From an uncultured bacterium (GTDB lineage: Bacteria > Patescibacteriota > Minisyncoccia > Phycocordibacterales > UBA6065), in assembly GCA_963841935.1 (NCBI GenBank), contig CAWJEP010000001.1, positions 10,487-74,486 of the forward strand: a DNA stretch of 64,000 nucleotides, read 5' to 3'. A program made the translations under genes and the position numbers. Positions 11,381 to 47,003 of the stretch are shown piece by piece. The notes beneath the pieces were generated by a model. It searched no databases and was not told where the DNA came from. It saw nothing but the letters and a program-made list of their open reading frames with translations. Numbering within the stretch: the first letter of the stretch is position 1; every line of letters begins with the position of its first letter.

Positions 11381-11540
11381 TGATAAAACAAATTAAATAA
11401 TAAGGACTTGGAACAGCGTGATTTATTCACCGACCCCCGCGAGATTTGGTGCGGAGAGCGATTACTCACCTGTTCCCTTAAATAACAAGCGTCGATGACG
11501 CAGAGATGAGACTACTATATGTATGAAAAAAAGCAAATTA

Positions 11541-11961
11541 CCAAGGTTCTCTTTTGCCTTTGAACCAAAATCCACCTGTTTGAGGTCTTGAGACCGCCAA
11601 TTTGAAAATATCATCCGCCGCTTCCTCTGGAATCATCGGCGCTTCGTCGCCGCCCATATTCGTCCTCACCCATCCGGGATGAACAGCAGAAACTATGAGA
11701 CCTTCTTTCATCGTTCTGTCCGCCAAAGTCGCCATATACATATTGAGAGCGGCTTTGGAAATCTTATACGCCGGATAATATCCCGGTTCGTGACTGATTC
11801 CTTCTTCGGTCAGCGTTATCGAACCGGCTTCGGATGAGACAAAGACAATGTGAGCGTCTTTCGAAAGGTTCGGCAACATTTTTTCCGTGAAATCCGCCGT
11901 GCCGACGAGATTGACCTCGAGTGTCTGCCGAAGTTTGTCCGGCAAAAGAATTGTTTCTCCG
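11541..11961. repeat. direct repeat copy A (about 421 bp, about 90% identical to 12996-13417)
   Basis: Nucleotide alignment of ccaaggttctcttttgcctttgaaccaaaatcc...ttgtttctccg against copy B. Confidence 0.8.
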
Positions 11962-12047
11962 ACACACCGGCCGGCGCGGATACTGGATTCGGTCGCGGAT
12001 ATCCGTGAATATTCGCTGATTAACCTACTACCGCTAGGTATTATACA

Positions 12048-12078
12048 AAAGAAAACAGCATCGATCGAGATGCTGTTT
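12048..12078 (-). terminator. hairpin plus T-run terminator for gene 12170-12715
   Basis: The hairpin cagcatc gatcga gatgctg is preceded on plus by gaaaa, which is a T-run in minus orientation. Confidence 0.45.
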
Positions 12079-12169
12079 GAGGATTTTAATAAAAGTTCCA
12101 CAACTTATTTTTTGAAAGAGCCAAGGTCAGAGATTCTAGAGCCAGTGCCCAAGTTTCAAAGAACCTAGA

Positions 12170-12715
12170 TCAACTTGCGGGAACGAGAGCCGGGCCGTCG
12201 CCGTCCCAGTCGCCGTCGAGCCAGATGAAGCTCCAGCGCCACCTGCCGCTGCCCCAGTCGAGGTAACGCACACAGAGGTCGCCGCCCGAGCCGCGGTATA
12301 TCGTGCCCCAGAAGAACACTGCCTTGCCTTTCCACTCTTCGGGGATGAGGTGCTGATTTCCATTTTTGAGGAGGAAGTCCAGCAGATTGGCGTTGTAGGG
12401 GTTCTTCTTCGATATGAGTTTGCGAAGTTTGTGGCCCTCGACATACCGACGGTCCGTCTGACCTTCATCGAGATGAAGCCGGACTTTCGTCGGGTCCCAG
12501 ACGAACTGGCCGCCCTTTTGGTGTTCCTCGACGGACCAGCCGTCGGGAATGAAGGGAGTGGCGGAGAGGTCGACGGTCTGGCTCAAAAACGGATCTTCGC
12601 CGCGGAGAATTTTCTTCAGAGCATCGAAGACCTGATCTCCGTTTTGCCCAGCAAGTTTGGTCTGAAGATCGTTCAGAACAGGAACCACTTCCACTAACAT
12701 GAGGTTGTTGCTCAT
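12170..12715 (-). CDS. hypothetical protein (181 aa), GC-rich and compositionally foreign
   Basis: Clean ORF (MSNNLMLVEVVPVLNDLQTKL...WGTIYRGSGGDLCVRYLDWGSGRWRW...DGDWDGDGPALVPAS). Its GC is visibly above its neighbours (roughly 55-60%). No family recognised. Confidence 0.5.
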   Translation of the reverse strand: MSNNLMLVEVVPVLNDLQTKLAGQNGDQVFDALKKILRGEDPFLSQTVDLSATPFIPDGWSVEEHQKGGQFVWDPTKVRLHLDEGQTDRRYVEGHKLRKLISKKNPYNANLLDFLLKNGNQHLIPEEWKGKAVFFWGTIYRGSGGDLCVRYLDWGSGRWRWSFIWLDGDWDGDGPALVPAS

Positions 12716-12799
12716 ATTTCCTTTTCTCTGTCATTTGCATGTCAAGGTCTGCCTATTGGCAGATTGTCCCGAGATGCGCGCCGATATGTTGATGTTACG

Positions 12800-12842
12800 G
12801 CGTTTTTCGGAAGCTCGCGCGAAGCACCCGAAAAACGCCGTA
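12800..12842. other. long hairpin upstream of gene 12170-12715
   Basis: ggcgtttttcgg ... ccgaaaaacgcc is a 12-bp perfect stem with a 17-nt loop. Confidence 0.4.
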
Positions 12843-12992
12843 CTCTTTCAAATTTCAATGTTCTATTTGCTGTCTATTATACACCAAACATATCTATATT
12901 GTCAATAGCAATGAAATATCATCTTTTTCAGAAATCCAAGAAATACCTAAATAGAGCCATTATACGAAATAGAGCTAAAAATGAGTCACTGG

Positions 12993-13664
12993 CTACCAAG
13001 GCTCGCGTTTGCCTTTGAACCAGAAACCGCCGGTAGCAGGTTTTGAAATCGCCAATTTGAAAATATCTGCCGCCGCTTCCTCTGGAATCATCGGCGCTTC
13101 GTCGCCGCCCATATTCGTCCTCACCCATCCGGGATGGACGGCGGAAACTATGAGACCTTCTTTCATCGTCCTGTCCGCCAAAGTCGCCATATACATATTG
13201 AGCGCGGCTTTTGAAATTTTATACGCCGGATAATATCCCGGCTCGTGACTGATTCCCTCTTCGGTAAACGTTATCGAGCCGGCTTCGGATGAAACGAACA
13301 CAATGTGCGCGCTTTTTGAAAGGTTTGGTAACATTTTTTCCGTGAAATCCGCCGTGCCGACGAGATTGACCTCGAGTGTCTGCCGAAGTTTGTCCGGCAA
13401 AAGAATTGTTTCTCCGTCATCAAGCATCACGCCGGCGTTATTTAAGAGGATATCTATTTTCTTTCCCATTTTCGAGATTTCTTTGACGCAATTCGCCACG
13501 CTTTCCTTTTTTGAAAGGTCCAAAGCGACGGAAACAAAGTTTTTTTGCTCGTCCGGCTCTTCCGAATTGAAAGTTCCGACGACAAAATATCCTTCGGAGA
13601 GAAATTTCTCTTTGAGTGCCTTGCCGATGCCTTTGCTTACGCCCGTGATGAGAACTGTTTTCAT
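12993..13664 (-). CDS. short-chain dehydrogenase/reductase (SDR) family oxidoreductase
   Basis: The 223-aa product has VLITGVSKGIGKAL (TGxxxGxG), NNAG, a catalytic YxxxK (YKISKAAL) and a PG motif. Confidence 0.85.
   Translation of the reverse strand: MKTVLITGVSKGIGKALKEKFLSEGYFVVGTFNSEEPDEQKNFVSVALDLSKKESVANCVKEISKMGKKIDILLNNAGVMLDDGETILLPDKLRQTLEVNLVGTADFTEKMLPNLSKSAHIVFVSSEAGSITFTEEGISHEPGYYPAYKISKAALNMYMATLADRTMKEGLIVSAVHPGWVRTNMGGDEAPMIPEEAAADIFKLAISKPATGGFWFKGKREPW
12996..13417. repeat. direct repeat copy B (3' end of the intact SDR gene)
   Basis: See copy A. Confidence 0.8.
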
Positions 13665-13668
13665 ATTT

Positions 13669-14289
13669 TTAAAAAGGTATGCCTGTAATTAAAGTAAAAA
13701 GCCAAGACACGACGACTGACGCTATCGGCGCGAGGATAAAAATCAGAAGAATCACTATGACAAGACCCCATTTGTCCAAGATTCGCCGAACATCTTGAAA
13801 ACGCGCGGGCAAAAGCGCACCGAAAATTCTCGAACCGTCGAGTGGCGGAATGGGAATGAGATTGAAAGTGCCGAGCATCAGATTGACAATGACAATGGTC
13901 GCGACGAGCCCCGCCGCCGCGGACGCCGCTATCGCCGGGGAAAATCGCAGGATGAGTCCGAAAACTATGGCGAGCAAAAAGTTGGAAGCCGGACCCGCGG
14001 CGGCGACGATGGCTTCGCCCCATTTCTTGTTTCGCAAATTATAAGGATTGAAGGGCACCGGTTTCGCCCAGCCAAAAATAAACCCGCCGAGAAGTAGCGA
14101 CAGGGCGGGGAAAATTATCGAGCCGATTGGGTCTATGTGCGGTAAGGGATTGAGTGTAAGTCTCCCACTGTCTTGCGCCGTCCTGTCGCCAAGAAAAAGC
14201 GCGGCGTAGCCGTGAGATACTTCGTGAATAATCACGGAGAAAATCAGGATGATGAGCGAGAACACGAATGTTAGAACTGAATTGTCCAT
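13669..14289 (-). CDS. site-2 protease family (M50) zinc metalloprotease, small membrane-embedded form
   Basis: HEVSHG (HExxH) sits in TM1. There is an NLIPIPPLDG motif and multiple TM helices. Confidence 0.8.
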   Translation of the reverse strand: MDNSVLTFVFSLIILIFSVIIHEVSHGYAALFLGDRTAQDSGRLTLNPLPHIDPIGSIIFPALSLLLGGFIFGWAKPVPFNPYNLRNKKWGEAIVAAAGPASNFLLAIVFGLILRFSPAIAASAAAGLVATIVIVNLMLGTFNLIPIPPLDGSRIFGALLPARFQDVRRILDKWGLVIVILLIFILAPIASVVVSWLFTLITGIPF

Positions 14290-15189: not shown

Positions 15190-15780
15190 ATGCAAAAATT
15201 CGAAGAAAAAAAATTCAATATTCCGGCTTTAAAAGGTATTTCGGCGAAAACAATCGAGGAACATTTGAAGCTTTATAGTGGTTATGTAGCGAACGCCAAT
15301 CTCGTTATGGAAAAAATCGCGACACTCGGCGCAGATCCGGCGAATGCGTACGCCGTGAGCGAAATCCGCAGACGTTTCAGTTTTGAATTCAACGGTATGC
15401 GCAATCATGAAGTTTATTTTTCTTCTTTCGAGGGCGGAGCAAAACCTTTACCTGCCAATTCCCTTCTTAAACAAACGGTTGAAGCTGGGGGAGGAACACT
15501 TGAAGCTGGTATCGCTTATTTCAAATCACTAGCCCTCACTCGCGGTATCGGCTGGGCAATGCTTTGGTATGACCGCAAAGACAAAATGATACTTGCGTCA
15601 TGGGTCGACGAACAGCACCTCGGACAACTCCAAGATTGCACACCCATTCTCGCTCTCGACATGTGGGAACATTCGTTCGTCGCGGACTACCAACCCTCGG
15701 GAAAGAAAAGTTACGTTGAAGATTTTTTCGCCAATCTCAATTGGGAAGTGATCGAGAAGAATTTCCTAAACGCGCGATAA
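15190..15780 (+). CDS. Fe/Mn-family superoxide dismutase-like protein
   Basis: The C-terminal DMWEHSFV motif matches DxWEHAYY. NHEVYF matches NHxxFW. The EEH position corresponds to the N-terminal His ligand. Start chosen at MQKFEE. Confidence 0.6.
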   Translation: MQKFEEKKFNIPALKGISAKTIEEHLKLYSGYVANANLVMEKIATLGADPANAYAVSEIRRRFSFEFNGMRNHEVYFSSFEGGAKPLPANSLLKQTVEAGGGTLEAGIAYFKSLALTRGIGWAMLWYDRKDKMILASWVDEQHLGQLQDCTPILALDMWEHSFVADYQPSGKKSYVEDFFANLNWEVIEKNFLNAR

Positions 15781-17290
15781 AAAATATCATCGCGGCGTAG
15801 ACAATCACAACCGCCGAAAAAGGAAAAGGGATCGCGACTGACGAAAAAGGAATCGCCGAAAATATTTTGGCGACAAATAGCTCGTATGAAGTGAAAAAAT
15901 AAGCAACGACGGCGAACGGAAAGGAGAGAATCGGCGAAATTAGACCGATCACACCTGACAGAAGTCCGAAAAGCATGGTCATGGGCAGTACCGGCAAAAT
16001 TAAAATATTGGCCGGCACGGAAAAAAACGACAGCGAGCCGGTAATATACAAAATATAAGGCAAAACGGCGACTTGCGCCGACAAAGTCGATATAAAAATT
16101 TCCCTAAAACCGAATCTCTCGGGAATTTTCACTAACTTTTTTTCGAAAATGGGCGAAATAAATATAAGGCCGAGAACGGCGAGAATGGAAGCCTGAAAAG
16201 ACGAGTCGAAAATCAAAATCATTGGGTTCCAAAAGACCATCAGGAAAATCGTCAGTGCCAAAGCGCGCACGGCGTCGTGTTTTCTCGCCAAAGCTTTGGA
16301 TAAAAAAGCGAAAAGCGCCATGATGGAGGCGCGAACGACCATGGCCGACGCTCCGGTCATCAAAACAAAAAGAATAATTGAAACCGAAGCGAGAACAAGC
16401 GACGTCCGAAATCCAAATCTCGCAAAAAACCTTCTGACGGACTCGGCAACGATTGCGATGGCGTAGCCGGAGAGGATAACGATGTGAATCGTGCCAACTT
16501 TTCGAAGCATGTCTAGAATATCCTGCGGTACGGAATGTCTTTCTCCCAAAAGAATGGCGTTGACCAAAGATGCGTTCGGCTCATTTATCACGCGGTCAAC
16601 GCTATCGGCGAACGCGTGTTTTATCGAAAGAAGAAAGGATATCGCGGGATTGCCTTTGTTTGACGCGACCAAACTAATAACCGGTTGGTACATTACGGAG
16701 TAGATTCTGTCTTTTTGAAGATATGAAACATAATCGAAAACCTCACCTGTCGCGTCATCAGAAAAATTCCTCGGCGAAACCAATGGGCCGAGAACGGCGA
16801 GCTCGTCGCCGTAATTTCTTTTCGGAAAAAGTCCGGCTTCAATGAGAATATTATTTTCTCCGGAAAGTTTTTTGCCGTTTACCGACTCCACGCGAAAAGT
16901 AATAAGCTGTTTGTCTTGCCTGACATCCGGGTCTTGCGAAATGTAACCGGTGATTTCTATTTTGCCTCTCGCGCCGGAAAGAATCGGGTCCGGAGTTTTT
17001 GAATATGTCTCGTATCGCAAAGCGCCGAGAAAGAAAAATATCAATGAAAGAGAAACGAGCGCGGGAAGTGCGGCAGTTTTTCGCTTGTGCGCTTCGCTCC
17101 GACTTACGCGCTCAAAACTGCCGCACTTCCCGCGCTCTAAATTCGGTCTTCGTTCGAAAATACATACCGCCGCGATTGCCGAAGCTATTAATAATACAAA
17201 AACTAGCAGAAAAATATCGGCGTTCGTGAAAGTTTGAAACGCGATTCCCGCCGCGAAACCTATAACCGCTATATAAATGGCCGCCGCCAT
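15737..17290 (-). CDS. comEC: competence protein ComEC/Rec2 (DUF4131 plus competence domain, polytopic membrane)
   Basis: The 517-aa product has many TM helices with ComEC-core-like segments (...LSGYAIAIVAESVRRFFARFGF...). It carries an in-frame 81-bp palindromic element insertion in the TM2-TM3 loop. Confidence 0.8.
   Translation of the reverse strand: MAAAIYIAVIGFAAGIAFQTFTNADIFLLVFVLLIASAIAAVCIFERRPNLERGKCGSFERVSRSEAHKRKTAALPALVSLSLIFFFLGALRYETYSKTPDPILSGARGKIEITGYISQDPDVRQDKQLITFRVESVNGKKLSGENNILIEAGLFPKRNYGDELAVLGPLVSPRNFSDDATGEVFDYVSYLQKDRIYSVMYQPVISLVASNKGNPAISFLLSIKHAFADSVDRVINEPNASLVNAILLGERHSVPQDILDMLRKVGTIHIVILSGYAIAIVAESVRRFFARFGFRTSLVLASVSIILFVLMTGASAMVVRASIMALFAFLSKALARKHDAVRALALTIFLMVFWNPMILIFDSSFQASILAVLGLIFISPIFEKKLVKIPERFGFREIFISTLSAQVAVLPYILYITGSLSFFSVPANILILPVLPMTMLFGLLSGVIGLISPILSFPFAVVAYFFTSYELFVAKIFSAIPFSSVAIPFPFSAVVIVYAAMIFFIARLGNSSRSLPN
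17057..17137. repeat. RPE/MITE-like palindromic element, copy 1 (24-bp arms plus conserved 33-bp core), in frame inside comEC
   Basis: gagcgcgggaagtgcggcagtttt | TCGCTTGTGCGCTTCGCTCCGACTTACGCGCTC | aaaactgccgcacttcccgcgctc. It totals 81 bp, which is 27 codons. Confidence 0.8.
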
Positions 17291-42768: not shown

Positions 42769-43443
42769 ATGACCGACTGCCACACATTGGTAATGAGCGA
42801 TCTGCATCTCGGCTCGCGCGTCTGCCGCAGAGACAAAATCCTCGGCGTTCTAAAAAATAGCCGCCTCCACACCCTCGTTATAAACGGCGACCTCTTCGAC
42901 AGCAACGACATAGAGAAATTGACCGACAAAGACTGGGAAATCCTCGAAACCCTGCGCAAAATAGCTCAAAAAAACACCGTCCTCCTCGTTGGCGGCAATC
43001 ACGGCAGAAAGCTCGACTTATTCGCGGAGGATTTCGGCGTGAAAATAGTGGATGAATACGCTTTCACGCTCGGCAAAAACAGATTTCTCTGTCTTCACGG
43101 CGACGAATTCGACCTTTTCGTCAAACACTTCCCTATGACTAGCAATATGTTCGGCAAATTATATTATTTGATACAAAAATTGAGCCGGAAAAAGCAAAAA
43201 GGTCCCGTGATGGTGAAAATGATTATGAAGAAAGTCTTGCGCGTGCCGCGCAGACAGGAGCGCCTGGCGCTCAAGCGAGGAGCAAGCGACGGCGCGGATG
43301 TTGTCATCTGCTCGCATACGCATATTCCTCATATGGAAACCAAAAACGGCATTCTCTTCATCAACTCCGGCTCTTTCTGCGACAATCCGAGCAACTATGT
43401 GGCAATTAGTCCGACTGGTGAGACGGAACTTGTGGGGGTTTAA
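42769..43443 (+). CDS. calcineurin-like metallophosphoesterase (LpxH/YfcE-like)
   Basis: The motifs are SDLHLG, NGDLFD, GGNHG, LHGDE and SHTHIPH. Confidence 0.8.
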   Translation: MTDCHTLVMSDLHLGSRVCRRDKILGVLKNSRLHTLVINGDLFDSNDIEKLTDKDWEILETLRKIAQKNTVLLVGGNHGRKLDLFAEDFGVKIVDEYAFTLGKNRFLCLHGDEFDLFVKHFPMTSNMFGKLYYLIQKLSRKKQKGPVMVKMIMKKVLRVPRRQERLALKRGASDGADVVICSHTHIPHMETKNGILFINSGSFCDNPSNYVAISPTGETELVGV

Positions 43444-43446
43444 AAT

Positions 43447-43815
43447 CTACTTAATTTTCTTCTTTTGTGCGCTTGGTATGTGTTTATCAAGTGGCTCGTG
43501 AATTTCACGCACTATCTCGCTGGTATTATTATCTTTCACAACCTCATCGTATCGGTTGTTTTCTTTATCTATAACACGATCTACCGTTACTCCATCCGGG
43601 TGTTTAATTAAATCCCCACTAATTTTCCAACCTGTATAAACTCTTTTCAAAAAATCTTTAATGCCAGGACGTTTATGCGTCATACTAATTGAATGTAACC
43701 TAGTCTTATAGACTCCTACTGAAACATTCATTACAAAACGATTACCCGTGTCTTTTTTACAAGATTCACAGTATGAGTTTTCTTTTTCTTTGTTACACAC
43801 AGAACAATATCTCAT
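43447..43815 (-). CDS. hypothetical protein with N-terminal zinc-ribbon (AT-rich island)
   Basis: CSVCNKEKENSYCESC. It is markedly AT-rich relative to its flanks. Confidence 0.4.
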   Translation of the reverse strand: MRYCSVCNKEKENSYCESCKKDTGNRFVMNVSVGVYKTRLHSISMTHKRPGIKDFLKRVYTGWKISGDLIKHPDGVTVDRVIDKENNRYDEVVKDNNTSEIVREIHEPLDKHIPSAQKKKIK

Positions 43816-43827
43816 AATATCTTGCTG

Positions 43828-44295
43828 TTATTCTAGACCTGTCTGATTACAAATTTCTTTCTTTAATTTATAAACTGTCTCTAGCATCAAATCTGTATCG
43901 AACCGATCCATTTGTACAGCAGTCTCACCAAAACGAGTATCAAGAGTGTTTTCATACTCCCTGATAAGCTCAAACAGTCTTTTATTCTGTGCTATTTCGG
44001 CAAATACCGAAATCTTGTTTTCATAGAATGAAATTATCTTAGTGACACTATGACCTAATCCTTCTTTTTTTGCGTCAAATTTTAAATTTTTATGTGCAGC
44101 AAGAGATTTTGTAAAAAGTTCCATGGAAAAATACAAGGCGTGTGGATAGACCCAAAAAGAAATAAGTCTCGACCCTTTCTTTTCTCTTTCATCTTTCAAA
44201 ATTAAAAAAGTTTGAAGCCATTCTGTACCGACATGAAAAAACATCGACCACTTTGGTGGAAAAGTATCGTTAAATTTCGGAAATTTTGTTGGCAT
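43828..44295 (-). CDS. hypothetical protein (AT-rich island)
   Basis: The 155-aa product has no family. Confidence 0.4.
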   Translation of the reverse strand: MPTKFPKFNDTFPPKWSMFFHVGTEWLQTFLILKDEREKKGSRLISFWVYPHALYFSMELFTKSLAAHKNLKFDAKKEGLGHSVTKIISFYENKISVFAEIAQNKRLFELIREYENTLDTRFGETAVQMDRFDTDLMLETVYKLKKEICNQTGLE

Positions 44296-44298
44296 ATC

Positions 44299-44631
44299 TT
44301 ATGATAAAACCAAAACTACTATTAGTCCGAAAATAAAAACTCCGATGGCTGTCCATATTCCCCAGTACAAGGCTATAAGACTGAGTATGATAACGATTAC
44401 CCATTTACCTATTTTCAAGAAACTTCTCTTCTTATATTCTGTAACTAATTTTTTTATATTTTGTTCCGCTTCTCGTTCAATTTTATCCGTAACTTCAATC
44501 TGATTTTTTACGTAATCTTCAGTCTCACCTTCGCGACCCTGTTTCTTCAACATCTCAACTGTCCCTTTCATTAGATTATAACCAGCACGCGCCATATCAT
44601 TTTTATAATTGCGTTCAGGTATATTATTCAT
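44299..44631 (-). CDS. hypothetical membrane protein (AT-rich island)
   Basis: A charged N-terminal half and two C-terminal TM helices. Confidence 0.4.
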   Translation of the reverse strand: MNNIPERNYKNDMARAGYNLMKGTVEMLKKQGREGETEDYVKNQIEVTDKIEREAEQNIKKLVTEYKKRSFLKIGKWVIVIILSLIALYWGIWTAIGVFIFGLIVVLVLS

Positions 44632-44654
44632 AATTTCTATTATTGAACTAAAAC

Positions 44655-45230
44655 CTATTTCTTCCCATGCTCAAACAAATCCCCTGGTTGCCATGGAGTG
44701 CCGCACGCGGGGAGAAGCCAATAATCGACGCCGAGGTAGCCAGCGACGCGCCAGGCGAGGATGAGACCGATAGCCAGAGTGAAAAGTATCGGATTGACGC
44801 TTACCGTACCGGCGAGGAGATAGTTGAGATTCATAAAGAGTCCGAAGAATGCCGCGATGCCGGTAAAAGCGCCGATGATGAGAGCGATGCCGACGAGGAG
44901 TTCGCCGTAGGAGACGACGTACGACCAGACGACCGGATGCGTCAGTATTGTTGATTTGAGAAAAAGTGCATACCAACTCTGTACGTCGGGATGATCCCCT
45001 GCCGCTTTGCCGAGTGCACCGTTTACAAATCCCGTGAGCGCCGTGCCTGCCGCACTTCCCGTCCACGCGACGCTTGTGACTTTTTCCCACGCCGCAGTCA
45101 CCCACTGATAGCCGACATAGAGCCTGACGACAAGCCAGAACCAAGAAAGTTTCGTGTTCGCAAAAAGTGCCATTACCGCCGGAGCTTCATTATATGTTCT
45201 GTGTTTCATATCGAAATTATACACCTGCAT
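44655..45230 (-). CDS. DoxX-like integral membrane protein (tentative)
   Basis: Four TM helices; WFWLVVRLYVGYQW resembles the DoxX N-terminal helix. Confidence 0.35.
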   Translation of the reverse strand: MQVYNFDMKHRTYNEAPAVMALFANTKLSWFWLVVRLYVGYQWVTAAWEKVTSVAWTGSAAGTALTGFVNGALGKAAGDHPDVQSWYALFLKSTILTHPVVWSYVVSYGELLVGIALIIGAFTGIAAFFGLFMNLNYLLAGTVSVNPILFTLAIGLILAWRVAGYLGVDYWLLPACGTPWQPGDLFEHGKK

Positions 45231-45442
45231 ATCTTTCGAGCGAATAATTTATAAAGGAGTACACTTACCATATGATAAAAGGAAATTTCATCGGCGCGGC
45301 AATCGTCGCGATAATTTATACGGTCTATATTTTGTGGAATCCCCTTCCGTCAAAATCGCAAATGGTAATAACTTTGGTGGTTCTCAACGCCCTGACCATC
45401 GTCCTGATGGCTTTCGCTTTCAGACCGTAACCTATCAAAATG

Positions 45443-45460
45443 ATGCGGGATGGGAGAATC
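45443..45460. repeat. 18-bp direct repeat of the tRNA-Gly(TCC) 3' end (att-like scar)
   Basis: tgcgggatgggagaatcg is identical to 45600-45617. Confidence 0.6.
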
Positions 45461-45599
45461 GGTCGTTACACGACCAGTATCCCAATTGGATTTTTTATTC
45501 GTGAACATTCTAAAAAATCTCAATCGGGCTTCGATATCTCCCACGGAAGCATAATATGCTTCCTATCCTCGCAAAATATATTCGCTGCGCTCGTTATTT

Positions 45600-45670
45600 T
45601 GCGGGATGGGAGAATCGAACTCCCGACCACAGTTTGGAAAACTGTTGTTATACCATTTAACTAATCCCGC
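45600..45670 (-). tRNA. tRNA-Gly (anticodon UCC)
   Basis: The minus-strand sequence is GCGGGATTAGTTAAATGGTATAACAACAGTTTTCCAAACTGTGGTCGGGAGTTCGATTCTCCCATCCCGCA. It has a 7-bp acceptor stem, a GGGAG/CTCCC T-stem and a TTCGATT T-loop. No encoded CCA. Confidence 0.85.
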
Positions 45671-45737
45671 CTACGCTATCGCTTCGGCGGGCAGGCCCGC
45701 TTGAGCAAAAACACTTTACCACAAGACATCAAAAATC

Positions 45738-46054
45738 TCACTCGCTCTCCCCTTTTGAGAGCCGCACGACTTCGTCGAAATCGTCTTCGGCGGATAATTT
45801 ATTTTTTTTCTCGAATCCGCATTTCACGCACTGCTGAATTATGGAAAAATCCCCTTTCGTTTTGATTACCGAGATCGGTTTCATCATTCCTCCGCACTTT
45901 TCCGCCCGATCACCAGGATTTTTGTCGACATGTTTCGACCAGAGGCAATGCGGACAATGATTTGTGTAACCATTACCGACGACTTCCCTTCCGCAATTCT
46001 CGCAGACGAAATTTTCGACCGTTTTTTGGAATTTTTTCGTGTCCTTTAGCATTT
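45738..46054 (-). CDS. RNHCP-domain zinc-ribbon protein
   Basis: CENCGREVVGNGYTNHCPHC...CVKCG. The start is trimmed to MLKDT because the longer ORF overlaps tRNA-Pro. Confidence 0.55.
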
Positions 46055-46055
46055 T

Positions 46056-46126
46056 TCGGGGCGCCGGGAATCGAACCCGGGCCGCATGATCCCAAATCAT
46101 GAATACTACCTCTATACTACGCCCCG
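46056..46126 (-). tRNA. tRNA-Pro (anticodon UGG)
   Basis: The minus-strand sequence is CGGGGCGTAGTATAGAGGTAGTATTCATGATTTGGGATCATGCGGCCCGGGTTCGATTCCCGGCGCCCCGA. The anticodon stem is CATGA/TCATG and the loop is TTTGGGA. Confidence 0.85.
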
Positions 46127-46177
46127 TGAAACATCATACTAGCACACTCGCCCCGCCGAAGCTTCCGCGGCGGCGGG

Positions 46178-46585
46178 CTACTCGGTAATATTTACTTTTT
46201 CTATCATTCTTACTCGGGCTTTTCTCGTATTTTGGTCTAGTTCAATGGCCAAAATGTTCCAAAAGAAATCCATATCCCGAAAATCAGGCCTTTGGGCGAA
46301 ATATATTTGCGTTACGCGCGAAAGCTTTTTCATTTTGGAGTAAGTCATATTTTCCTCCGGTCTAAAGGTTTCATGTGAAACCTGAATATCCGTTGTTTCA
46401 CGTGAAACACTTTTTACCTCAAAAAAGTGAATTTCATTGCCTTTTCTGGCGACAATATCGATTTCTCCGGCTTTTCTAGTGAAATTCCTTTCGATTACCG
46501 TGAAACCCTTATTTATCAAGTATTTACAGGCAATTTCCTCGCCGATTTCACCTATTTTCTGTGTTTCAGAGGTAAATACTTTCAT
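46178..46585 (-). CDS. YraN/UPF0102 family endonuclease
   Basis: IGEIGEEIACKYL..KGF.VIERNF..K.GEIDIVA.....HFFEVK. The start is at MKVF. The upstream TTG-initiated extension overlaps the palindrome cluster. Confidence 0.65.
   Translation of the reverse strand: MKVFTSETQKIGEIGEEIACKYLINKGFTVIERNFTRKAGEIDIVARKGNEIHFFEVKSVSRETTDIQVSHETFRPEENMTYSKMKKLSRVTQIYFAQRPDFRDMDFFWNILAIELDQNTRKARVRMIEKVNITE
46367..46411. promoter_or_regulatory. pair of GTTTCA-N2-TGAAAC palindromes inside yraN
   Basis: GGTTTCATGTGAAACC (46367-46382) and TGTTTCACGTGAAACA (46395-46410). Confidence 0.4.
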
Positions 46586-46591
46586 TTTGTA

Positions 46592-46622
46592 TGTTTCACG
46601 TGAAAAGTGTTTCAATTGAAAC
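46592..46622. promoter_or_regulatory. pair of GTTTCA-N2-TGAAAC palindromes immediately upstream of the yraN start
   Basis: TGTTTCACGTGAAAAG followed by the perfect GTTTCAATTGAAAC. Confidence 0.4.
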
Positions 46623-46756
46623 TATTTCTCTATATTTCTCCGTAATTATAGGACAAATGTCCTTGATAATGTGATGTCTTTTACACCTAATCCACAATGT
46701 TATCCACAGAAATATAAACAGACGGTGATTCGGAAAATCCGCCGATTTTCAGAGGG

Positions 46757-46827
46757 TGCGGGTAGGGAGAATCGAACTCCCACCTCATCCTTGGCAAGGA
46801 CGTGTCCTACCACTAAACGATACCCGC
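46757..46827 (-). tRNA. tRNA-Gly (anticodon GCC)
   Basis: The minus-strand sequence is GCGGGTATCGTTTAGTGGTAGGACACGTCCTTGCCAAGGATGAGGTGGGAGTTCGATTCTCCCTACCCGCA. Confidence 0.85.
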
Positions 46828-46875
46828 GTGAAAGCAATTCTAAACGAAATAACCAAAAACTCCAAATCCTATTTG

Positions 46876-46947
46876 TGCGCCCGGAGGGACTTGAACCCCC
46901 AATATCGGTTCCGAAGACCGGTGTGATATCCATTTCACTACGGGCGC
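46876..46947 (-). tRNA. tRNA-Arg (anticodon UCG as read; one C-A mismatch in the anticodon stem)
   Basis: The minus-strand sequence is GCGCCCGTAGTGAAATGGATATCACACCGGTCTTCGGAACCGATATTGGGGGTTCAAGTCCCTCCGGGCGCA. Confidence 0.75.
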
Positions 46948-47003
46948 GCAAGCTCATCATAATCCAAGCAAGCCGTTTCTCCAATGTTTCGCAGTGTCGA
47001 TAA

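Follow-up and report, generated by a model that had tools for sequence, protein, structure and literature searches.

Organization of the locus

The window analysed here is a 64-kb stretch of a 226-kb contig, and the features described below between 11381 and 13664 all lie on the reverse strand. An intact SDR gene of 223 aa was present in the list of open reading frames at 12993..13664 and matched Pfam adh_short over residues 2-188 (E 8e-32). The locus was flanked by fusA-rpsG-rpsL on one side and by genes for an M50 peptidase, L28, SOD and ComEC on the other. The ComEC-like gene was located at window positions 15737-17290, 2 kb away, and its orthologues matched the Pfam family Competence; the organism may be naturally competent.

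The 3' end of the SDR gene was found twice, in the same orientation and with a spacing of 1455 bp. The two parts of this direct repeat, 11539-11964 and 12994-13419, aligned over 426 bp without gaps and agreed at 389 of 426 positions (91.3% identity), in good agreement with the about 420 bp and about 90% of the original prediction. The 37 differing sites were spread across the 426 bp. The repeat represented the 3' 141 codons of the SDR gene, once inside the intact gene (copy B, the 3' 426 nt) and once as a fragment (copy A), with a certain SDR origin limited to its last 423 nt and with 11956-11961 forming the junction microhomology described below. Copy A (11538..11961) read in frame through 141 codons to its stop codon, with no indel or earlier stop codon. 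It covered only positions 99-189 of the adh_short profile and lacked the Rossmann/NAD(P)-binding half, which agreed with the earlier description of an intact SDR gene keeping one 3' half and a dead, truncated fragment carrying the other. Copy A is a pseudogene fragment, and the 187-aa ORF (11538-12101) enclosing it is fortuitous. The repeat terminated precisely at the SDR stop codon, and the alignment showed that the downstream flanks of the two copies were unrelated.

As had been noted, no integrase gene was adjacent: neither the ORF list nor Pfam revealed a recombinase of any type within the insert or next to it, and neither an identical att core nor a defined element end was found at the insert boundaries. 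Of the ORFs in the insert, the 181-aa gene alone had homologues elsewhere.

The insert gene and its variable region

The 181-aa gene (12170..12715) was annotated as a DGR variable (target) protein gene on the basis of homologues paired with a template repeat (TR). It had been called an orphan, which proved wrong, as the protein had 516 homologues at E <= 1e-3, mostly in Patescibacteria. The closest homologue was P0004 (85%); identity was 72% to P0002 of locus L087 and 65% to P0005 of locus L088, both of which had a VR/TR pair. Among 85 fetched homologue loci, a TR lay 200-400 bp downstream from the match to the target gene in about 40, in most cases with Avd and RT next; an RT followed as well in 25 of these. 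The TR of the relatives was ~123 nt long, and the mismatches between TR and variable region (VR) within these loci fell at adenines in 18 of 18 cases in L087 and in 8 of 9 in L088. From its sequence relationships, the 181-aa protein can be assigned to the DGR target (variable) protein family, although it gave no match in PHROGs, PADLOC, NCBIfam or Pfam. Its AF2 model had a pLDDT of 89, and the best PDB matches, C-type-lectin-like domains found by Foldseek at weak E values of 0.07-1, tentatively suggest a C-type-lectin fold.

The VR of the target gene (12175..12297) had 69% GC and 11.6% A on the coding strand. It was 76% identical to the template repeat of L088 and 73% identical to that of L087. 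Measured against these relatives' repeats, the cognate TR being missing from the window, the VR mismatched at 18 of 29 TR adenines and 10 of 91 other sites for L088 (P = 1e-7), and at 22 of 33 TR adenines and 12 of 87 other sites for L087 (P = 4e-8). This pattern points to a footprint of adenine-directed mutagenesis in the window VR.

The same region accounted for the base composition of the gene. The GC content of the 181-aa ORF was 57.1%, compared with a window mean of 48.8%, and lay in the top 1.4% of 546-bp windows, so the gene is GC-rich as had been noted. The excess was confined to the last ~125 nt of the ORF (69%), and the remainder was unremarkable at 53.5%. The high GC content is thus due to the adenine depletion of the VR, a by-product of adenine mutagenesis, and the foreign origin that had been read from it was rejected.

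A second copy of the VR, that is, a TR, was not found in the 64-kb window (best off-target blastn hit E 0.098), and tblastn searches of the window with the L088 proteins found nothing better than E 0.14 for RT and E 1.6 for Avd. The L088 Avd itself matched NCBIfam DivGenRetAVD with an E value of 1.6e-13, under the curated cut-off. The insert is a truncated DGR cassette, within 64 kb a remnant rather than a working DGR. The target gene would be frozen for want of RT and TR, a reading that covers 64 kb of the 226-kb contig, elsewhere on which RT and TR are possible.

Regulatory elements and the recombination joint

The target gene retained its regulatory parts. The promoter scan found a sigma-70 promoter, TTGACA-18-TATAAT, with 12 of 12 matches at 12876..12905. 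The hairpin that had been reported upstream of the gene was present in the 5' UTR at 12796..12842, with arms of 20 nt (90% complementary in the inverted-repeat search) instead of a 12-bp stem; the leader comparison showed that L087 retained this hairpin with changes on both arms. The gene also had its own Rho-independent terminator, as had been stated, consisting of a 10-bp stem followed by a T run at 12078-12053 (feature 12053..12078).

Beyond the terminator lay a conserved DGR non-coding element (11962..12052), which contained a -10-like TATAAT at 12040-12045 followed by GGTAGTAGG. It was present in 14 DGR-target loci and was 88% identical to L087 and 80% identical to L088 and L092-94. In L087 and L088 the conserved element ran about 150 nt further, into the TR. 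In the window, the element probably corresponds to the TR-RNA promoter and 5' leader, with the 3' part cut off. An uninterrupted DGR leader would go on as CGGAGATTATGG into the TR.

The alignment with the L087 cassette spanned window positions 12908 to 11956, beginning at the target-gene promoter, and homology to the cassettes of both L087 and L088 ended at the hexamer CGGAGA. This 6-nt microhomology (11956..11961), located by alignment with L087, L088 and copy B, was common to the DGR leader (GTGTGTCGGAGATTATGG in L087; also in L088) and to SDR nt 247-252 (GATGACGGAGAAACAATTC), and the window carried GTGTGTCGGAGAAACAATTC at the joint. When TGNCGGAGA was included, 8 of 9 positions at the joint matched. 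These alignments indicate that the DGR breaks off inside the conserved non-coding element and that the microhomology links it to SDR nt 247.

Two other candidates at this boundary were rejected. L141 did not share the breakpoint, as its homology extended at least 50 nt further, and it represents an independent decay event. The 85 bp before copy A were considered as a second copy of the rpsL upstream region, as in a larger tandem duplication, and scored 12 against 10.5 +/- 1.7 for shuffled sequences.

The SDR-rpsL slot in relatives

SDR orthologues in relatives had 80-87% amino acid identity and the same M50-SDR-rpsL synteny. Close relatives, searched for an SDR locus lacking the insert, had one SDR gene and no 181-aa gene, and two SDR genes, including full-length tandem paralogues, were present in none of the relatives examined. 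The gap between SDR and rpsL was variable: it was empty, held non-coding units, unrelated to one another in L001, L082 and L173, or held a full DGR, which in L088 and L092-94 was ordered as the 181-aa homologue, TR, Avd and RT, then rpsL. In L087 the cassette sat after polA with its own TR and RT.

The flanks of the two SDR copies corresponded to different slot haplotypes. Copy B was followed by a 62-bp segment downstream of the SDR stop codon (12931..12992), delimited by blastn end-points and a three-way alignment. This segment was common to the occupied-slot relatives L001 and L083, the blastn alignment with L001 ending at 12931, and copy B with the 62 bp was colinear with such relatives; L081 and L082 shared the post-SDR segment down to the blastn end-point at 12945. 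The segment was missing after copy A and in L086, which has an empty slot. Copy A was contiguous with the rpsL upstream region (11381..11537), as in L086, and copy A together with the downstream sequence was colinear with L086: window positions 11944-10484 matched 6284-7743 of L086 in one blastn alignment at 85.7% identity.

Further observations showed that strain heterogeneity at the slot is real. L173 and L083 showed no difference over more than 2 kb as far as SDR nt 233, diverged by 17% from there to the stop codon and had different slot contents; this mosaic shows that homologous exchange with a crossover in mid-SDR occurs in the population. The L172 contig broke exactly at the SDR stop codon. 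The non-coding inserts of L001 and L082 contained no remnants of the 181-aa gene, RT or Avd. No tmRNA or other known RNA was detected in the relatives' gap by ARAGORN or by Rfam at gathering scores and E <= 0.5, and on these empty results the gap was rejected as a classical tmRNA-type island target. Exact-sequence look-ups with the window SDR, the 176-aa form of the 181-aa protein and P0004 returned no contig on record, no parental genome of either type proposed below was found, and proteins spanning the locus occurred on one contig only.

Both SDR copies evolved under purifying selection

Between copies A and B, dS was 0.34 and dN/dS was 0.10. With five outgroups, the derived changes were 14 synonymous to 5 non-synonymous in the copy A lineage (P = 3e-6) and 12 to 5 in the copy B lineage (P = 3e-5); neutral expectation is 77% non-synonymous, and both lineages were far under it. 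Both copies were under purifying selection, so the fragment must have spent nearly its entire separate history inside a working gene. The copies were mutually nearest (91%) and almost equally distant from all other compared strains (80-89%). The 87 nt adjoining the joint were identical between A and B, and by permutation a run of this length had P = 1e-4 at that edge and 0.004 anywhere; the tract could equally reflect later gene conversion between the repeats. The dS and dN/dS values, the equal numbers of selected changes and the flanks matching two slot haplotypes argue that the partner sequences came from two diverged genomes, a donor and a recipient.

Discussion

We consider the locus to be the scar of one homologous exchange and one illegitimate joint between two strains of one Patescibacteria lineage, with a probability of about 0.7, the structure being known from a single assembled contig. 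The parental strains would have differed in the occupant of the variable slot between SDR and rpsL. The B-type allele would have contained SDR, the 62 bp, the promoter, the structured leader, the variable-protein gene with its VR, the terminator, the TR-RNA leader, TR, Avd and RT, and the A-type allele would have had an empty slot, with the rpsL upstream region directly after the SDR stop codon. At CGGAGA, the illegitimate joint would have connected the DGR leader with the A-type SDR at its nt 247, giving a product made up of an intact SDR gene, a DGR stump in which a frozen variable-protein gene kept its promoter and terminator and lost TR, Avd and RT, and the dead 3' half of a second SDR allele.

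In the route that we prefer, which is of the Campbell type, a B-type fragment of ~1.46 kb, from SDR nt 247 to the DGR leader, would have closed on itself at CGGAGA, and one crossover inside the 87-nt identical stretch would have inserted the circle into a recipient whose slot was empty. Such integration automatically yields a duplicated homologous gene end, and would explain the one seen here. The sequences themselves show the anatomy, the DGR nature of the insert, the joint, the selection on both SDR copies and the polymorphism of the slot; the circle, the roles of donor and recipient and an entry of the DNA by natural transformation are inferred. The idea of homologous integration carrying a replacement 3' end remains one viable route, and either copy may be the "displaced original" of that idea.

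The same product would arise from homology-facilitated illegitimate recombination (HFIR) of linear DNA in natural transformation, with homology at one end, outside the repeat, and joining at CGGAGA at the other. Either a B-type donor fragment (M50/SDR-5' ... DGR leader) would have replaced the SDR 5' half of an empty-slot recipient, or an A-type fragment (mid-SDR ... rpsL) would have entered a DGR-bearing recipient and deleted TR-Avd-RT. Under HFIR, a single homologous exchange and a single microhomology joint suffice for the structure seen, ComEC is encoded nearby, and the process has been documented in bacteria with natural competence and put forward to explain gene 3'-end displacement in Rhs and T6SS loci (PMC3240628, PMC5361080). 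However, it typically couples insertion with deletion, direct duplication being the hallmark of single-crossover integration (PMC3240628), and the significantly long tract of identity on the side of the repeat nearest the joint is not expected under HFIR unless gene conversion came after. HFIR is nearly as likely a route as the Campbell-type circle, and as an explanation by itself it is possible, if doubtful. A history in two steps within one chromosome would start from an ancestor with SDR_B, a complete DGR, a full-length SDR_A and rpsL; a later deletion mediated by microhomology, reaching from the DGR leader to SDR_A nt 247, would have removed TR, Avd and RT together with the SDR_A 5' half. 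The CGGAGA joint fits a simple intrachromosomal deletion and the purifying selection on both copies fits genes that were complete until recently, but this history is unlikely, as the tandem SDR alleles would have required a further illegitimate event beforehand, and no examined relative had two SDR genes.

The remaining explanations fit less well. In a chimera of reads from two co-occurring strains, made in assembly or amplification, the structure would be restricted to one contig, as observed, and the strain heterogeneity at the slot, for example at the L172 contig break, would supply the partners. A graph assembler, however, needs shared k-mers; because the novel joint shares only 6 nt, reads must already have contained the DGR leader next to mid-SDR, and the 226-kb contig is otherwise syntenic with the relatives, so that a chimera is very unlikely. 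Integrase-mediated genomic islands insert at the 3' ends of tRNA, tmRNA or protein genes, for which they bring a replacement end. Taken strictly, the original prediction of a self-contained mini-island, a small element with a cargo gene integrated site-specifically into the SDR 3' end and supplying the replacement, would follow this pattern, and the locus resembles it in the direct repeat of a gene 3' end bracketing inserted DNA, in the gene staying intact and in the lack of the insert in relatives. Unlike such islands, the locus lacked an att core and encoded no recombinase, integrases included, within the insert or next to it; the repeats were 9% diverged along their length and did not form an identical core with divergent arms; the insert was an incomplete cassette of a family native to Patescibacteria, found in other contexts with TR and RT (after polA in L087); and its inner boundary was an illegitimate joint, a truncation in a conserved DGR element at a 6-nt microhomology. 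Site-specific integration is highly improbable on these grounds. In-situ tandem duplication of the SDR 3' end with neutral decay of the extra copy would account for a same-orientation repeat 1455 bp apart, yet it is scarcely credible: selection on the fragment was as strong as on the intact gene (14 synonymous to 5 non-synonymous), its 141 codons had stayed intact, and the repeat ended at the stop codon between unrelated flanks that matched two slot haplotypes of the relatives. Since both copies were under purifying selection, they are better explained as alleles of two strains that were recently joined.

Precedents exist for the parts of the scar scenario. A cellular DGR clade is restricted to Patescibacteria (Roux et al. 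2021, PMC8144416). As in the DGRs of Patescibacteria/CPR, the relatives of the target family had a C-terminal VR, adenine-specific TR mismatches, Avd and RT, and the window kept the promoter, target gene, VR, terminator and start of the conserved leader; unlike them, the window was without TR, Avd and RT, and its cassette was truncated at a joint with an unrelated gene. In laboratory E. coli, linear DNA that recircularised and integrated by a single crossover duplicated the end of the target gene over 109-950 bp (Amarir-Bouhram et al. 2011, PMC3240628). The locus is similar in the partial 3'-end duplication flanking the insert, in the restored functional gene, in the repeat length of 426 bp, within that range, and in a non-homologous joint at a short microhomology; it differs as a natural footprint in an uncultivated lineage with partners diverged by 9%. 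HFIR, too, has been described in other competent species, and for the window it would be deduced from the footprint. The C-terminal displacement of Rhs/CDI/T6SS genes leaves orphan 3' ends in effector-immunity loci (Jackson et al. 2009, as cited in PMC5361080; Kirchberger et al. 2017, PMC5361080). There, as here, incoming DNA that matches the resident gene in a conserved upstream part supplies a new 3' end along with cargo, the previous 3' end persists further downstream as an orphan fragment, and the proposed mechanism combines homology on one side with illegitimate joining on the other. In contrast to those loci, the gene ends in the window were near-identical alleles of a housekeeping-type SDR and not polymorphic toxin domains, and there was a single displacement, with no array and no apparent selective logic such as immunity retention.

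A more speculative and rather unlikely idea treats the SDR 3' half, together with the SDR-rpsL gap, as a site dedicated to exchange in this lineage; the gene end would serve as a portable homology arm travelling with the slot cargo and a conserved promoter after the SDR stop codon would drive interchangeable cargo (a DGR or three unrelated non-coding transcripts of ~250-480 nt), the window being a trapped intermediate. Were this so, the non-coding cargoes might represent strain-specific RNAs of a new class, and breakpoints in mid-SDR (at nt <=233 in L173/L083 and at nt 247 in the window) might mark a recombination hot spot.

We regard the locus, in a genome of the Patescibacteria, as the recent scar of a known kind of recombination event and not as a new kind of mobile element. 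The analysis corrects two annotations: the "hypothetical" 181-aa gene encodes a DGR variable protein, and the 187-aa "SDR-like protein" is a DGR leader fused to a dead gene fragment. The locus also provides a clean natural case of a disabled DGR whose variable-protein gene would persist as a frozen orphan, and shows how strain-level recombination at a slot between conserved genes reshuffles accessory DNA in the small genomes of Patescibacteria, a group that cannot be studied in culture. Direct sequence evidence of recent DNA exchange between strains of this group comes from the joint, from the signature of selection on the fragment and from the mosaic SDR genes of relatives.

Results

Every gene in the region is encoded on the minus strand. 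Read in that direction, the M50 peptidase (13669-14289) was followed by the intact SDR gene (12993-13664, 223 aa), a 277-bp spacer, the 181-aa ORF (12170-12715), a 208-bp spacer, the SDR fragment (11538-11961), a 157-bp spacer, and finally rpsL-rpsG-fusA. The 3' 426 nt of the SDR gene (copy B, 12994-13419) recurred as a direct repeat at 11539-11964 (copy A), gap-free and with 91.3% identity. The fragment matched only positions 99-189 of the adh_short profile, the C-terminal part, and therefore lacks the dinucleotide-binding half. The repeat stopped exactly at the SDR stop codon, and the 3' flanks of the two copies were unrelated to each other. The duplicated SDR 3' end of the original prediction is real, and its coordinates and description were correct except for the hairpin stem, given as 12 bp while the arms are actually 20 nt (12796-12842), and the word "orphan", as the 181-aa protein had 516 homologues at E <= 1e-3. 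The whole structure is known from one contig. Elsewhere in the window, the lowest-GC stretch (43000-47000, 40-46%) contained all four tRNA genes (Gly-TCC, Pro-TGG, Gly-GCC, and Arg-TCG).

The homologues with a source name all came from Patescibacteria or unclassified bacteria, and no Pfam domain was found among the 516. The homologue of locus L088 (the same locus as L092-94) was 65% identical, and 380 bp downstream its 3' end was repeated over 123 nt. Next came an accessory variability determinant (Avd) gene in the opposite orientation, then a reverse transcriptase (RT), and then rpsL. Of the differences between template repeat (TR) and variable region (VR), 8 of 9 in L088 and all 18 in a second homologue locus, L087, sat at template adenines, the hallmark of a diversity-generating retroelement (DGR). 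Among 85 fetched loci with a homologue, about 40 had a TR past the target gene, and in 25 of these it was followed by an RT. Patescibacteria-restricted DGRs are a recognised clade, and VRs generally lie on C-type-lectin folds (PMC8144416). The AlphaFold model of the 181-aa protein was of high confidence (pLDDT 89), and its best PDB matches were C-type-lectin-like domains, with weak scores.

The VR of the window (12175-12297) was 76% identical to the L088 TR and 73% to the L087 TR, with mismatches at 62-67% of the TR adenines versus 11-14% of the other positions (P about 1e-7). The GC content was 69% in the VR and 53.5% in the remainder of the gene, inside the normal spread of the window. The gene had been taken as GC-rich and foreign; the excess sits in the VR and is explained by adenine-directed mutagenesis. 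The insert qualifies as a member of the DGR target-protein family but not as a working DGR, with no TR, Avd, or RT found within the 64-kb window, and functionally it is a DGR remnant. An RT could be present on the remainder of the contig, outside the window.

The 5' UTR of the gene (12716-12875, minus; L087 560-700) contained two hairpins (12796-12842 and about 12735-12748), both kept in L087 with changes on both arms, and the conserved stretch GTAACATCAACATATCGGCGCGCATCTCGGGA between them; compared in these two sequences, it may be a regulatory leader. Independent decay of a DGR is seen at locus L141 (5965-6800): its homologue keeps the conserved leader element, but a 531-aa gene comes next, and neither a TR nor an Avd or RT gene lies within 6 kb. 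A nearby TR and RT were also missing from about 20 fetched loci, each with 2 kb or more of sequence downstream. Three IMG/VR contigs classed as viral (L089, L090, and L091) encoded homologues with 37-53% identity, and neither a TR nor an RT was detected in the 5 kb past the gene.

Homology to the L087 and L088 DGR cassettes ran from the promoter (12908) through leader, gene, and terminator into a ~90-nt non-coding element (12052-11962), conserved in 14 DGR-target loci (the window, L087 1346-1436, L088 719-798, and 11 further loci). In many Patescibacteria DGRs it lies between target-gene terminator and TR. The element opens with a -10-like TATAAT, then GGTAGTAGG...CCGAATCCAGTATCC, and probably serves as promoter and 5' leader of the TR RNA. 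Just past it, L088 804-902 matched Rfam RT-7 weakly (E 0.08, well under the gathering score). The element goes on ...GTGTGTCGGAGATTATGG... in L087 and L088, with the TR about 150 nt later, and reads ...GTGTGTCGGAGAAACAATTC... in the window, changing over to SDR nt 253 onward; across the corresponding stretch the intact SDR reads GATGACGGAGAAACAATTC. Comparison of the three shows an illegitimate joint at the 6-nt microhomology CGGAGA (11956-11961). An assembly chimera is an unlikely source of the structure, because the new adjacency has only these 6 nt in common, an overlap that a graph assembler could not bridge.

Relatives retrieved by genome scan and exact-protein look-ups (several strains, 78-88% DNA identity) had the common synteny M50-SDR-rpsL-rpsG-fusA, and neither the 181-aa gene nor a second SDR piece was present in any of them. 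They varied in the gap, or slot, from the SDR stop codon to the conserved rpsL upstream sequence. The slot was empty in L086, with which copy A and its 3' flank were colinear (window 11944-10484, 85.7%), and filled with about 250-480 nt of non-coding sequence in L001/L083, L082, and L173. These fillings were mutually unrelated, with a common promoter ahead and a terminator at the end, and the first 62 bp past their SDR stop were shared with the sequence past copy B. By these flank matches, copy B belongs to an occupied and copy A to an empty slot haplotype. In L088, the complete DGR ended at the same right-hand boundary, just ahead of the rpsL upstream sequence, which makes the DGR one natural occupant of the slot.

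The slot units homologous to window 11538-12992 (L083 6673-7098, L082 2923-3465, and L173 2688-3010) have a conserved promoter, TTGACT-17-TACGMT, about 70-115 nt past the SDR stop and a strong closing terminator; no long ORF or Rfam family match was found in the three, and they are putative transcripts. The 939-bp contig L172 ended two bases past the SDR stop codon, as expected if strain heterogeneity of the slot breaks assemblies there; the 3' half of its SDR was closest to copies A and B (87-89% nt), while the 5' half was only 72% identical to the window. Another small presence/absence polymorphism lies nearby: a gene of 105-128 aa, without a recorded Pfam match, that sits between the MBL-fold gene and L28 (L083 4688-5005, L001 4688-5068, L173 703-1020, and L086 4597-4983), missing from the window and L081/L082.

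Copies A and B differed at 37 positions, mostly synonymous (dS 0.34, dN 0.034, dN/dS 0.10). When five related SDR genes served as outgroups to polarise these differences, the derived changes were 14 synonymous and 5 non-synonymous in the fragment lineage (P = 3e-6) and 12 and 5 in the intact lineage (P = 3e-5), against a neutral expectation of 77% non-synonymous changes. No indel or stop codon was found across the 141 codons of the fragment. The fragment thus belonged to a working gene nearly throughout the A/B divergence, and its truncation was recent. In-situ duplication followed by decay is ruled out by this long history. The two copies originated as alleles in separate, diverged strains; a less likely origin is a pair of full-length paralogues, both maintained for a long time. 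The copies were mutually closest (91%) and almost equidistant from all other strains compared (80-89%). The 87 nt adjoining the joint were identical (P = 1e-4 at that edge, 0.004 for any such run), whereas the remainder of the repeat differed at 10.7%.

Discussion

To arise, the structure requires that a DGR-bearing allele and an empty-slot allele underwent one homologous exchange, with a single illegitimate joint in addition, and three routes yield the identical product. In route (a), a ~1.46-kb fragment from SDR nt 247 to the DGR leader would close on itself at CGGAGA, and the circle would enter the SDR gene of an empty-slot recipient by a single crossover, necessarily duplicating the homologous gene end and rebuilding the intact gene. 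Linear DNA that recircularises in E. coli integrates this way, leaving 109-950-bp duplications (PMC3240628). We prefer this recircularisation route for the sole reason that the 87-nt identical tract adjoins the joint. A crossover inside a repeat is expected in its longest identical tract. Linear homology-facilitated illegitimate recombination (b), with the homologous exchange outside the repeat and transfer in either direction (PMC3240628, PMC5361080), and a two-step course (c), in which a tandem of two full SDR genes is trimmed by deletion, give the same product, but both need later gene conversion to explain that tract.

L173 and L083, compared over SDR nt 1-672 and 2 kb upstream, differed at a single base over >2 kb up to SDR nt 233 and were 17% divergent from there to the stop codon, with different slot contents. 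This is a clean mid-SDR homologous-recombination breakpoint, by which mid-SDR exchange is shown independently; the joint of the window, at nt 247, lies within ~15-100 nt of it. The identities of the SDR 5' and 3' halves were also discordant among strains. A ComEC gene lies near the locus, and the DNA entry route is one that we infer. No parental genomes were found.

The mini-island of the original prediction holds as to the replacement 3' end and the recent insert absent from relatives, but the identity of the insert and the mode of integration were wrong. With neither recombinase nor att core and with an incomplete element, the locus does not qualify as a site-specific, integrase-type island. 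C-terminal displacement is known from Rhs, CDI, and T6SS effector loci, in which the old 3' end is moved downstream by an incoming module whose upstream part is conserved (PMC5361080). The overall footprint here works the same way, although what was displaced is the end of an ordinary SDR allele, and once only. The locus is a new instance of known processes, DGR decay together with homologous-plus-illegitimate recombination at a variable slot.
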